Of a DNA stretch of 64,000 bases, positions 10,765 to 15,782 are shown piece after piece; the stretch's first letter is position 1, and each line of letters begins with the position of its first letter. Origin of the DNA: an uncultured Actinomycetota bacterium (lineage in GTDB: Bacteria > Actinomycetota > Actinomycetes > JAHEKZ01); assembly GCA_963743915.1 (NCBI GenBank), contig CAVURN010000001.1:544001-608000 (forward strand). The letters are read 5' to 3'. The notes beneath the pieces are model-generated. The model was not told where the DNA came from and did no database searches. It was given only the letters and a program-made list of their open reading frames with translations. The position numbers and the translations under genes are program-made.

Positions 10765-10786
10765 TGTCAGCAGCGCTGGGTACCGT
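10765..10786 (+). promoter_or_regulatory. PafBC-type (RecA-NDp) DNA-damage promoter, leaderless into sbcD
   Basis: TGTCAG-cagcgctggg(10 nt)-TACCGT fits TGTCRG-N10-TA-N3-T; ATG 7 nt after the -10, no SD. Confidence 0.7.
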
Positions 10787-10792
10787 CCCCAT

Positions 10793-12013
10793 ATGCGGCT
10801 GCTGCACACCTCCGACTGGCACCTGGGACGCGGCCTGCACGGTGTCGACCTGCACGTCGCCCAGCAGCACGTGCTCGACCAGATCGTGGCGCTGGTGGCC
10901 AGTCGCGGCGTCGATGCCGTCCTGATCTGCGGTGACGTGTTCGACCGGGCGGTGCCCCCGGTTTCCGCCGTCCAGCTCTGGGACCGGACGCTCCGCGCAC
11001 TGTGCGAACAGGTGCCCGTCGTCGTCATCCCCGGCAACCACGACTCCGCGCCACGGCTGGGGGTCGGCGCCGACCTGTTCCGGAGCGGCGTCCACGTCGT
11101 GGCCGACGTCGACGCGGTGGGGACGCCGGTGACCCTCCACGACGACCACGGTGCCGTGCGCATCTACCCGGTGCCCTTTCTCGACCCCGACGTGGCCAGG
11201 CACGCGTTGGCGGGGGCGAGTGACACCCCGCTCCCGCGTTCGCACGAGGCGGCGATGGCGGCGGCGATGGCCCGCATCCGTTCCGACCATGCCCGACGCT
11301 CTCAGGACGTCCCGGCGCGCATCGTCGTGATGGCGCACGCCTTCGTCGTGGCCGGAGCGGCCGGCGCGCTCCCCGCGGGCGACGGGGCGGGGGGTGGTGA
11401 GCCCCAGCGCAGCGACAGCGAGCGCGACATCCGGGTCGGTGGCGTCGACAGCGTGCCTGTCGACGTGTTCGACGGCATCGACTACGTGGCCCTCGGCCAC
11501 CTGCATGGCGCCCAGCGGGTCGAGGGGCCGCAGCGCAGCGGACGCGTCCGGTACAGCGGATCCCCCCTGCGCTACTCCTTCAGCGAGGCGGCGCAGCACA
11601 AGCAGGTGGCCATGGTCGATCTCTTGGCCGACGGCTCGGTCGAGGTCGAGACCGTCGAGCTCGAGCAACCCCAGGGGATGTCCGCCGTTGCCGGCTCGCT
11701 CGAGCGCTTGCTCACCGACCCCGGGCTCACCGAGGTCGAGCGGTGCTGGGTCCAGGTGACGGTCACCGACCCCGCCCGACCGCCCCAGATGGTCCCCCGC
11801 GTCAAGGAGCGCTTCCCGGACGCGCTGGTGGTGCGGCATGTCCCCGCCACGGGTCCGCTCGCGACCAGCAGCCATGTCGGCGTCCCGGCGTCCCCACTGG
11901 AAGTCGCCGAGTCGTTCGTGCGCTACGTGACCGGTGGCGACATCACCACCGTCGAGCTCGACGTGTTCCGTGACGCGTACGAGCAGGTGCTCGCGTCGGG
12001 CCGTGAGGCCTGA
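10793..12013 (+). CDS. sbcD: Exonuclease SbcCD subunit D (Mre11-like)
   Basis: HTSDWHLG, GDVFD, GNHD, YVALGHLH, RYSGSPLRYSFSE. Confidence 0.95.
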   Translation: MRLLHTSDWHLGRGLHGVDLHVAQQHVLDQIVALVASRGVDAVLICGDVFDRAVPPVSAVQLWDRTLRALCEQVPVVVIPGNHDSAPRLGVGADLFRSGVHVVADVDAVGTPVTLHDDHGAVRIYPVPFLDPDVARHALAGASDTPLPRSHEAAMAAAMARIRSDHARRSQDVPARIVVMAHAFVVAGAAGALPAGDGAGGGEPQRSDSERDIRVGGVDSVPVDVFDGIDYVALGHLHGAQRVEGPQRSGRVRYSGSPLRYSFSEAAQHKQVAMVDLLADGSVEVETVELEQPQGMSAVAGSLERLLTDPGLTEVERCWVQVTVTDPARPPQMVPRVKERFPDALVVRHVPATGPLATSSHVGVPASPLEVAESFVRYVTGGDITTVELDVFRDAYEQVLASGREA

Positions 12014-15000: not shown

Positions 15001-15024
15001 AGCCGCCTGGTCGTGTCTGCGTGA
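12013..15024 (+). CDS. sbcC: SbcC (Rad50-like SMC ATPase)
   Basis: Walker A GPTGAGKS, coiled coil, zinc hook PCLVCGS, LSGGE, Walker B LFVDEGFGSLD; TGATG overlap with sbcD. Confidence 0.95.
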   Translation: MHLHRLELCAIGPFADTFTVDFDALGASGLFLLEGPTGAGKSTLIDAVVFALYGQVAGSESSAERLHSDVAPPDRTPYVELDFSTSQGLYRVRRTPKHERAKRRGDGVVTENASARLWRLLEPTEPGYAGEPVATRVEEVGREIRDAVGLSREQLTQTVVLPQGEFAAFLRAEPEGRRRLLQRLFGTEVYDRVVLRLEEQRKQARHQRADAEAAVLGAVRAFTGASGVEGEAETVLVDAGTDEGALVAAVEDHLGSLRSARDQAQVQLEVAEKAVDAAREELRQRQRHEAARSRILSLRGQLAALDGRRAELETDAERLRLAEQVLPLLPILDGLVDAERRHDELDAQLREVRATLPAPVTRQSELDLDDPATWPPAERRLRDLVAELGASAALEASLEARAVEQNVRRARLDDTRRRHREADEALVLAPERIQSLQHQLQDAAVRRERLAGADTELAAAVEAVAAAERLARLREQLEVAGAATERARQQAQRAADVARELHRRFLDGIAGHLAQQLSDDEPCLVCGSSVHPRPAARRPGDVDRATVDAATAEAAAAEQAFHQAVVHARALEAEIVDCRRDASDVSVTDAQLRVRNAELAVADLALADADVTRLRDELRAAEAGLEQHRAASGALGVEVGRLQAELDAFTEQLERDRRAVAAACSGHGSVAERVEALLVQADLLAAASAAARAVETAATDVGTRLQQWQVAVASSPFPDRDAVLVARLDEQSRGALAETLEAARRRRTEIETELALPELADVDVEVVTDPGVAEQALIDAEADHQAAQKEVTGLTQRIDDALQRANEVTDALAERRQVHGRTTPVVRMADLVSGIGADNARSMSLPAFVLRERFAEVVATANERLATMSDGRYALEHAEDKQGAKRAGLGLRVRDAHTEEPRDPRSLSGGETFYCSLALALGLADVVTAEAGGVDLGTLFVDEGFGSLDADTLDHVLGVLSGLTASGRVVGVVSHVPELKERISERVTVLKNRDGSSRLVVSA

Positions 15025-15782
15025 GCGCCGGCCGACAGACACCACCCCCACGGCTGCGCAGCAAGGTCTCGGCGCAGGAGCGCGCCCTCATCACCGATGC
15101 CGTGGGTCCGCTCGCCGACGACCGTCTGGTGCGCGCCGTGCGCGACGGCCGGGGGCGTGAGTTCCAGCGCTTGGAGTTCCTCGGCGACTCGGTGCTCGAC
15201 CTGGTGCTCGCCGCCCATCGGTGGGTCGAACCGACATGCCGTGCGTGTCGCGACGCCCCGCAGGTGGCCAGTGACCGTCATCTCGCACAGGTCGCCAGAG
15301 CGGCGGGGCTCGGCGCCTGGCTCGAGTGGGACGCCTCCGACGACCGCATCGCCGATCTTGTCGAGACGTGCGTGGCCGCGACCTGGCTCACCGGTCGCTG
15401 GCCACGAGCGGTGGGGTTCGCGGCGAGAGTCGTGCACCCGTTCGGCGACGCCACTGGCCGGCTGCTCGCGGCCGGGGGACAGAGCCTGCCGCCGGGCCGT
15501 GAGGCGCGCAGGGTGGGGGCGGCCGTCCTCGAGCTCGCGGCCGCCTCGGGGTTGTTCGACGAGCTGGCGCTTGCCGACGAAGGTGAGTTGTCGCGTCGAC
15601 GCGCACTGCTCCATGAGGCCGACCAGGTCGCCGCGCGGGTGAGGCAGCGGCAGCAGGTCGGCGGTGACGTGGAGACCGTGGTCAGTCGGGTCGAGGACGC
15701 GCTCGCGGCGCAGCTCGCCGACGTCGGAGCGGATGCCGCGCTCACCGCTGCGCGACCCTTGCTGGGGTTCGCGGGCGGCTAG
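15021..15782 (+). CDS. Tandem RNase III-domain protein (one intact, one degenerate domain; no dsRBD)
   Basis: Domain A: QRLEFLGDSVLDL...LAQVARAAGLG...IADLVETCVAA; domain B: RRVGAAVLELAA..GLFDE..ADEGELSRRRALL...VSRVEDALAAQLADVG; GTGA overlap with sbcC stop. Confidence 0.8.
   Translation: MSAGRQTPPPRLRSKVSAQERALITDAVGPLADDRLVRAVRDGRGREFQRLEFLGDSVLDLVLAAHRWVEPTCRACRDAPQVASDRHLAQVARAAGLGAWLEWDASDDRIADLVETCVAATWLTGRWPRAVGFAARVVHPFGDATGRLLAAGGQSLPPGREARRVGAAVLELAAASGLFDELALADEGELSRRRALLHEADQVAARVRQRQQVGGDVETVVSRVEDALAAQLADVGADAALTAARPLLGFAGG

Follow-up and report, generated by a model that had tools for sequence, protein, structure and literature searches.

A predicted single-chain pair of active and pseudo-active RNase III domains in Actinomycetes, encoded behind sbcD and sbcC in one lineage

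Bacterial RNase III enzymes have been described with one nuclease domain per chain, and two such domains in tandem have been placed only in eukaryotes (Drosha, Dicer and chloroplast RNC1; in the reviews consulted, PMC8708148, PMC7827160, PMC3867540). The canonical enzyme (rnc, TIGR02191) is a homodimer with one nuclease domain and one double-stranded RNA (dsRNA)-binding domain (dsRBD) per chain and two active sites, while Mini-III (B. subtilis MrnC) is a homodimer of one-domain chains (about 140 aa) that also has two sites. Cleavage of one strand only is reported for artificial E. coli heterodimers and has been proposed for the editosomes of trypanosomes (PMC3867540, PMC5648035). Here we describe a protein that matches none of these arrangements, encoded directly behind sbcD and sbcC in a 64,000-nt contig stretch (the window) from an uncultured Actinomycetota bacterium. 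It combines two RNase III domains within one chain, of which the first (a) retains a complete set of catalytic residues and the second (b) is degenerate.

The protein carries the RNase III signature (PF00636, 39.7 bits against a cutoff of 27), and its TIGR02191 score of 39 bits lies below the equivalog cutoff of 166.25. Its two RNase III domains fill aa 16-250 of an all-helical model, and no dsrm (dsRBD) match was found in the chain. The tandem arrangement, suggested earlier in a first-pass annotation made from the DNA alone, was borne out by two Pfam/TIGR stretches, by an alignment of the two halves to each other (96.6% HH probability) and by a Drosha/Dicer-like fold. AlphaFold2, run on a 96-row alignment, returned an all-helical model with pLDDT 95.8 and pTM 0.93, for which Foldseek ranked Drosha and Dicers first. 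VIA-align superposed it on Drosha with Z 17.5 and rmsd 3.8 over 243 of the 253 residues and on other Drosha and Dicer entries with Z 14-16 (overall, Z 14-17.5 over 214-244 residues), single-domain bacterial RNase III matches being limited to one half (Z 8.6-9.5). The model of a basal family member (P0146, pLDDT 90.6) gave a Drosha match of Z 22.1 and rmsd 3.4 with 279 residues aligned. Overall, the modeling predicts a single-chain pseudodimer of the RNase IIIa/IIIb kind.

Residue states were read from an alignment of 180 rows, some of them redundant, comprising the window protein, 29 locus translations and length-filtered database proteins (at least 215 aa from a search for relatives, 200-340 aa from the family-like part of a profile search), with the register set against E. 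coli RNase III. The four carboxylates of domain a (E52/D56/D112/E115) are present in 178 of the 180 rows and are kept down to about 30% identity; D85 and R109 are invariant-like. The corresponding metal-binding carboxylates of Aa RNase III are E40/D44/D107/E110 (PMC3867540). In E. coli RNase III, E41, D45 and E117 tolerate no substitution (PMC10037077). Domain b of the window protein has R163 at the E41 equivalent and A167 at the D45 equivalent, and none of the 175 rows covered there keeps both the D45 and E117 equivalents: in close members the E is kept, the D is replaced by S or A and the E41 equivalent mostly by R, and the three rows that retain the D have Q in place of the E. The same holds for 23 further basal members, all with an intact domain a, whose domain b reads A/N/D/Q in 17, A/D/D/Q in 5 and otherwise in 1, with both the D45 and E117 equivalents in 0/23.

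The degenerate domain does not drift freely. Its G166 is nearly invariant, and it maintains an RBM3-like loop (DEGELS) with E187 in 167 of 180 rows and S191 invariant in 96; in E. coli RNase III, RBM3 uses E65 and S69 (PMC10037077). Both domains are under purifying selection, with dN/dS of 0.07-0.27 for a and 0.11-0.32 for b in 10 pairs (a rough Nei-Gojobori estimate). Across an RNase III dimer it is the partner's E65-type residue that acts, and in domain a the usual EGxLS loop of RBM3 is replaced by a CxxC motif (C73/C76). Since two histidines covary with these cysteines (by raw row counts, H66 occurs in 148/149 rows with at least two loop cysteines and in 8/31 without, H139 in 149/149 and 12/31, respectively), the pattern suggests a putative H2C2 zinc site formed by H66/C73/C76/H139.

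The two sites of RNase III act independently, and heterodimers with a single functional site nick dsRNA (PMC3867540). Because domain a holds the only two-metal site, single-strand nicking is predicted for the window protein as well, in agreement with the first-pass annotation, which had proposed an RNA-duplex nickase.

A comparison with described systems places the protein within the RNase III superfamily, yet it fails the defining features of rnc, Mini-III and Drosha/Dicer. The models liken it most to the RNase IIIa-IIIb core of Drosha and Dicer (class III/IV), which has the same tandem domains in one chain, forms an intramolecular pseudodimer and provides the best structural matches. On the other hand, the window protein is bacterial, 253 aa long, devoid of dsRBD, PAZ, helicase and platform domains, and has one catalytic site, domain b being degenerate in 175/175 and 23/23 rows, in place of the two active sites and accessory domains of Drosha and Dicer. 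With canonical RNase III it shares the signature FQRLEFLGDSVLD and the four carboxylates of domain a, and both halves match RNase III profiles, but the canonical chain has one nuclease domain and the window chain two, one of them dead. Mini-III likewise has no dsRBD and provides a plausible model for site-specific cleavage assisted by a helper or a ribonucleoprotein (RNP) (PMC3867540), but its structure (4oun) covers just one half of the window protein (Z 7.6), and both halves score better against canonical RNase III than against Mini-III sequences. Membership in rnc was rejected in view of the two domains in one chain, the missing dsRBD and the sub-cutoff TIGR02191 score, and membership in Mini-III in view of the two domains in one chain.

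The closest functional analogues are the KREN1-3 / KREPB4-5 pairs of the trypanosome editosome, in which an active RNase III domain is combined with a degenerate one that keeps the signature glycine, and which have been proposed to cut one strand only (PMC5648035). There, the two halves are distinct proteins that also have zinc-finger and PUF domains and belong to a large complex of a eukaryotic organelle, whereas the window protein is one small chain; by analogy, it may work most like a KREN/KREPB pair fused into one polypeptide. Chloroplast RNC1 is also a tandem RNase III with lost catalytic residues (PMC3867540, PMC8708148), but both of its domains are silent, and here domain a is intact. 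Searches of largely open-access literature, at the level of listings and abstracts, turned up no report of bacterial RNase III domains arranged as a tandem active/pseudo pair, nor of an operon joining an RNase III gene to sbcCD. The actinobacterial family of single-chain active/pseudo RNase III proteins is apparently undescribed.

The search for relatives yielded 124 among 8000 scored candidates; 120 were listed, and the few organism-labelled ones among these come from Actinomycetes or from metagenome-assembled genomes (MAGs) of Candidatus Nanopelagicales. Members are also present in cultured Geodermatophilaceae, among them Geodermatophilus pulveris (locus L028 below). A profile search of 1.84 billion representatives returned 25 clusters at E <=1e-30 and 68 at <=1e-10. 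In a 140-column domain tree, the a domains form one clade (support 99/96) and the b domains another (100/99), a grouping of a with b receiving 50/3. Because each of these clades stands apart from the sampled eukaryote-like tandem domains, the tree suggests an origin independent of eukaryotic tandem RNase III. Among viral collections, PHROGs gave only weak signature matches, to phrog_28637, and BFVD giant-virus RNase IIIs only, with E 0.007 or worse. Three distant tandem members (P0156, P0170 and P0202) carry an insert of ~110 aa after domain a and an extension of similar size after domain b, P0170 having a further 500-aa tail; these additions have no Pfam match and no similarity to SbcC or SbcD.

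We consider it reasonably probable (about 0.6) that the protein is a stand-alone, monomeric, one-site dsRNA nickase, linked to SbcCD only as an operon passenger in one lineage. Its two domains would pack like the IIIa/IIIb pseudodimer of Drosha and Dicer, with domain a supplying the sole two-metal site of a metal-dependent endoribonuclease and domain b acting as a conserved pseudo-enzyme half that would complete the dsRNA-binding valley and contribute the RBM3-like loop. One strand of an A-form RNA duplex would be cut and the other left intact. Without a dsRBD, the enzyme might act in a Mini-III-like manner on one or few structured cellular RNAs (an rRNA precursor stem, an mRNA or a small RNA (sRNA)), possibly within an RNP; its specificity would come from the nuclease core itself or, as with Mini-III, be provided by a helper. 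In the window lineage the gene, residing in a conserved chromosomal block behind sbcDC, would share a PafBC-driven transcript, and as a passenger it would probably be induced by DNA damage; SbcCD would not be needed. The layout of the locus is given in Table 1.

Table 1. Features of the sbcD-sbcC-RNase III locus (window coordinates)
Feature	Position	Strand	Remarks
PafBC-type promoter	10765..10786	+	-26 TGTCAG, 10-nt spacer, -10 TACCGT; leaderless start predicted at sbcD ATG
sbcD, Mre11-type metallophosphoesterase nuclease, 406 aa	10793..12013	+	TIGR00619 and catalytic motifs intact
sbcC, Rad50-type ABC ATPase, 1003 aa	12013..15024	+	TIGR00618, SbcC_Walker_B
Single-chain tandem RNase III, 253 aa, no dsRBD	15021..15782	+	one active and one pseudo-active domain, predicted to pair within the chain
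RNase III domain a, about aa 16-141	15066..15443	+	catalytic E52, D56, D112, E115
RNase III domain b, about aa 142-250	15444..15770	+	pseudo-site R163, A167
TAGGCT, predicted -10 of leaderless plsC promoter (RNase stop codon + next letters)	15780..15785	+	
plsC-like 1-acylglycerol-3-phosphate acyltransferase	15793..16647	+	PF01553 E 2e-27; conserved neighbour

The anatomy of this locus was as the first-pass annotation had described it, with the promoter motif at the head, sbcD and sbcC overlapping by TGATG, sbcC and the RNase gene by GTGA, and plsC starting 10 bp past the RNase TAG. The two upstream genes encode an ordinary SbcCD (Mre11-Rad50), with metallophosphoesterase motifs in SbcD, ATPase and zinc-hook motifs in SbcC and the genes adjacent. 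SbcD scores 148.9 bits against TIGR00619 (cutoff 77.65), and its D8/H10/D48/H83/H182/H236/H238 are invariant in 14 orthologs. The best family for SbcC is TIGR00618 (E 1.4e-87), though at 294.8 bits it stays below the cutoff of 478.5; the Walker A, CxxC hook (C523/C526), LSGGE signature and Walker B motifs are all there and invariant in 13 orthologs. In its intact sbcD-sbcC pair and PafBC consensus promoter the locus resembles SbcCD in a PafBC-type regulon, the appended RNase gene being the lineage-specific element.

PafBC, near-universal in actinobacteria, recognizes the consensus tGTCgg(N10)tA(N3)T (PMC8635444), of which TGTCAG is an accepted variant (PMC8151990). The window motif TGTCAG-N10-TACCGT, with 6 nt between its end and the ATG of sbcD, has a leaderless layout. 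In the 64 kb no other site matches TGTCRG-N10-TA-N3-T (0.12 expected by chance; 12 of 100 shuffles had one), and by itself the motif is modest evidence for a promoter; what settles the matter is its conservation across orthologs. Among 13 homologous sbcD genes with upstream DNA, the exact motif stands at the same leaderless spacing in 10, a CGTCGG variant in 1 and the -10 only in 2, so that the GTC core is kept in 11/13. With 10 of 13 loci retaining the motif unchanged at this place ahead of sbcD, we accept the PafBC-type promoter, noted already in the first pass, as genuine and as belonging to sbcD. A second match, TGTCAG-N10-TA at 18341-18362 (-), was discarded, as it lies inside the tetR coding sequence and ends in A; it recurs in six related loci, probably through coding conservation. 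No pafBC-like gene was found among the 55 window ORFs scanned with Pfam. A partial precedent for PafBC control of an SbcD-like operon is Rv1277-Rv1278 of M. tuberculosis: Rv1278 is marked PafBC_candidate in a supplement row (PMC8151990), and a published table has Rv1277 in its SbcD entry, marked as having no relationship to the E. coli protein (PMC2587704). In the consulted text and supplement of PMC8682763, sbcC and sbcD are unmentioned.

A scan for sigma-70 promoters and terminators found no promoter and no plus-strand terminator, Rfam matches in the window were limited to a tRNA and an L31 leader, both away from the operon, and RNAs spanning the junctions showed no better folding than their shuffled versions (z 1.68, -1.51, 0.69).

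To place the locus among its relatives, 185,579 species genomes were scanned, and the best 80 of 194 confirmed stretches gave 75 loci. The scan patterns were drawn from the close clade, basal subfamilies (P0142-P0146 type) lying outside the survey. Loci L001-L029 match most of the RNase (L015 is cut by a contig end); L030-L075 resemble it chiefly over the first domain, with 25-38% identity, and were excluded as probable canonical rnc, not checked one by one. Two of the family loci (L002 and L006) come from one MAG, and L002 is near-identical to L004. Of the 29 family loci, 16 have sbcC immediately upstream of the RNase gene, and these 16 are confined to a single clade, which has an extended gene block in common with the window (acyl-CoA synthetase, membrane protein, plsC, MFS, tetR, amidohydrolase, NUDIX). 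By assigned starts, sbcC and the RNase gene overlap by 4 nt in 15 of the 16 linked loci (16/17 counting the window); L012 was scored as an overlap, but its printed junction shows a 7-nt gap, and the stricter count is 14/16. No candidate -10 was found before the RNase start in the 17 linked loci including the window. Because the 4-nt overlaps are conserved and an internal -10 was not seen, sbcD, sbcC and the RNase gene very likely form one translationally coupled transcript.

The coupled operon of sbcD, sbcC and the RNase gene envisaged by the first-pass annotation is supported in this respect, with one correction for the plsC gene that follows it. In the window a predicted -10 (TAGGCT), the first half of which is the RNase stop TAG, lies 7 nt before the plsC GTG. 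With the start codons used initially, 12 of 16 loci have the TAnnnT element 5-8 nt ahead of plsC, and with two starts corrected 14 of 16 do (background 0.2%); it stays with plsC even where plsC is 0.6-2 kb from the RNase gene. With its own predicted -10, plsC is probably transcribed separately, independent of the operon promoter, and it was ruled out as a component of any system.

In 13 family loci there is no sbcCD nearby. Two of them (L017 and L018) fall inside the linked clade (99/99) and keep plsC, amidohydrolase and NUDIX at the same site without sbcCD; in L017 the order is membrane protein, RNase, plsC. No SbcC or SbcD match (E <0.01) was found in L017-L029, where 1.5-10 kb of upstream DNA was covered per locus. 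The strict PafBC motif occurs in none of the 13, and a relaxed pattern in 1/13, inside an upstream ORF. In the 11 more distant loci the neighbours are unrelated to the window block: in a second clade of 9 (L019-L027) the RNase gene is followed by an ssb paralog and an EttA-like ABC-F gene and in most cases preceded by a MaoC dehydratase gene, and two Geodermatophilaceae loci (L028, L029) have other unrelated neighbours. Several unlinked loci have their own leaderless -10-like element before the RNase. On the trees, the presence of sbcCD needs one or two changes (one gain, with or without one loss). Within the clade sbcC is adjacent in 16/18 loci, and plsC lies within 2.1 kb in 15/15 loci with downstream DNA; the link to sbcC is no tighter than that to plsC or the amidohydrolase. 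Likewise, 58 of the 69 positions invariant in 15 linked RNases are common to both L017 and L018 and only T145 is in neither, which gives no sign of an SbcCD-binding patch specific to linked members, as far as the just two unlinked comparators in the clade can indicate.

The conservation of the family in 13 of 29 loci without sbcCD nearby argues for a nickase independent of SbcCD. The first-pass annotation had put forward a candidate SbcCD-RNase system and proposed a neighborhood survey as a check; with linkage in 16/29 loci, confined to one clade and neither repeated nor obligate, with 13/29 loci free of both sbcCD and the PafBC consensus, and with no sign of a partner patch, its own caveat of incidental gene order is the better reading.

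Several observations weigh against a self-sufficient enzyme with an incidental neighbor. In the deep branches L013, L014 and L016 the other neighbors have been reshuffled, yet sbcC and the RNase gene still overlap, and a 4-nt overlap in 15/16 linked loci is more retention than a loose neighbor needs. The downstream gene of the second clade (an ssb paralog in 9/9 loci) is again DNA-related, although it follows a gap of 100-160 bp with its own conserved element. Finally, as an RNase III that has no dsRBD can be of low activity unless helped (PMC3867540) and the window protein is not net basic (32 K+R vs 34 D+E), a partner may be needed.

The best-surviving alternative, in our judgment an unlikely one, is a lineage-specific co-option into the DNA-damage response with no physical complex, in which the nickase would stay under PafBC control because cutting of stress transcripts, antisense/primer duplexes or rRNA would help after damage. 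It would account for the conservation of PafBC motif and translational coupling across orthologs that are only about 45-55% identical in SbcC and for the missing separate -10 before the RNase, and the M. tuberculosis operon offers a partial precedent. However, the promoter travels with sbcD and not with the RNase, as the unlinked loci demonstrate, L014 and L016 have lost the -26 element without losing the coupling, and canonical rnc also occurs in operons with repair genes (rnc-era-recO; PMC8708148).

A functional partnership with SbcCD, in which the RNase would be targeted to R-loops, RNA-blocked DNA ends or hairpins, its one site cutting the RNA strand of a hybrid or nicking DNA, we regard as improbable. 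That 16 related loci have the RNase gene coupled to sbcCD in an operon with a DNA-damage promoter is consistent with it, an asymmetric one-site enzyme fits an asymmetric substrate, the protein does not have the dsRBD that reads 2'-OH groups on both strands (PMC3867540), and DNase activity is described for a truncated form of C. elegans Dicer that has one active RNase III domain (PMC7827160). Against these points, the RNase is conserved and under selection without sbcCD in 13/29 loci, including the same chromosomal site in L017/L018; the linked clade shows no specific conserved patch (1/69 positions); and RNase III family enzymes reject DNA and hybrids via 2'-OH tracks (PMC3867540). Among the collected proteins from P0121 onward no SbcC or SbcD fusion was seen, nor any longer fused form in a 502-2000 aa search among 8000 candidates (weak evidence). 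It is similarly doubtful that the asymmetric valley, with a possible zinc loop in domain a and an arginine-/amide-substituted domain b, has changed its specificity to RNA:DNA hybrids or to DNA ends that contain RNA, the gene having been brought under PafBC control alongside SbcCD in one actinobacterial lineage; if true, this would be a bacterial RNase III acting directly in DNA-break repair, clearing R-loops or RNA-blocked breaks.

Very unlikely, in turn, is a non-catalytic or weakly catalytic dsRNA-binding scaffold for RNA folding or the ribosome, comparable to RNC1 or mL44: silent tandem domains have a precedent in RNC1 (PMC3867540), and the missing dsRBD, the CxxC insert in place of the RBM3 loop of domain a and the low TIGR02191 score (39 vs 166) would fit, but all four carboxylates of domain a persist in 178/180 homologs, while domain b illustrates quick loss when unused. 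Least credible of all is an anti-phage module with SbcCD sensing foreign DNA and the RNase as effector, rejected as a defence island even though layouts of SMC-like ATPase, nuclease and effector occur in defence systems and SbcC has generic ATPase matches to LmuB, mad3 and JetC, because SbcCD is of the canonical kind and has a DNA-damage promoter, the block, with its host-like GC, has passed down vertically amid metabolic and core genes, and neither PADLOC 2.0 (the RNase and three distant members) nor tblastn against 50,697 phage and 72,556 plasmid records gave a match.

A few features of the surveyed loci deserve separate mention. In L002, sbcD and part of sbcC occur twice (299-2718 and 5827-9986), each with the same PafBC motif, a possible assembly or binning artefact. 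Directly upstream of the RNase, L028 (6690-9761, -) and L029 (6949-9843, -) have a divergent ORF of 965-1024 aa without a Pfam match. A conserved TCCACAG element, presumably DnaA-box-like, lies 100-160 bp past the RNase gene and upstream of the ssb paralog in L019-L027. RNase III genes sit beside SMC-family genes elsewhere too, as in L034 and L050, where a probable canonical rnc of Clostridia is followed by an SMC/SbcC-like match (about 11390-11950).

The window itself has a GC content of 0.69-0.73 apart from one 2-kb block at 0.61 (60001-62000), where an ORF without a Pfam match (60817-61719) lies between rho and the L31 leader/prfA. By Pfam domains, its right end carries actinobacterial-type core genes (argS, lysA, hom, thrC, rho, prfA, prmC), and metabolic genes are found elsewhere. 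A membrane-anchored protein without a Pfam match (9946-10704) is the conserved upstream neighbor in the clade and the one that directly precedes the RNase gene in L017. The Amidohydro_3 gene (18912-20622) is split over two frames, compared with a single ORF of ~551 aa in homologous loci, owing to a frameshift or sequencing error. Upstream of the minus-strand ORFs 25942-26256 (no Pfam match) and 25111-25917 (DUF222), which may be one frameshifted DUF222/HNH-type gene, lies the palindrome CGAACGTATGTTCG (26399-26412), which we take to be LexA-box-like.

For the biology of this lineage, the SbcCD operon would be of much less weight than the enzyme itself, unless the co-option into the damage response holds. 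If the stand-alone nickase is correctly predicted, it would constitute a naturally occurring dsRNA nickase, convenient for expression and structure determination, and might serve as an RNA tool. For the RNase III family at large, a bacterial monomer of 250 aa in which an active and a pseudo domain are built into one chain would represent an apparently independent origin of the Dicer-like core.

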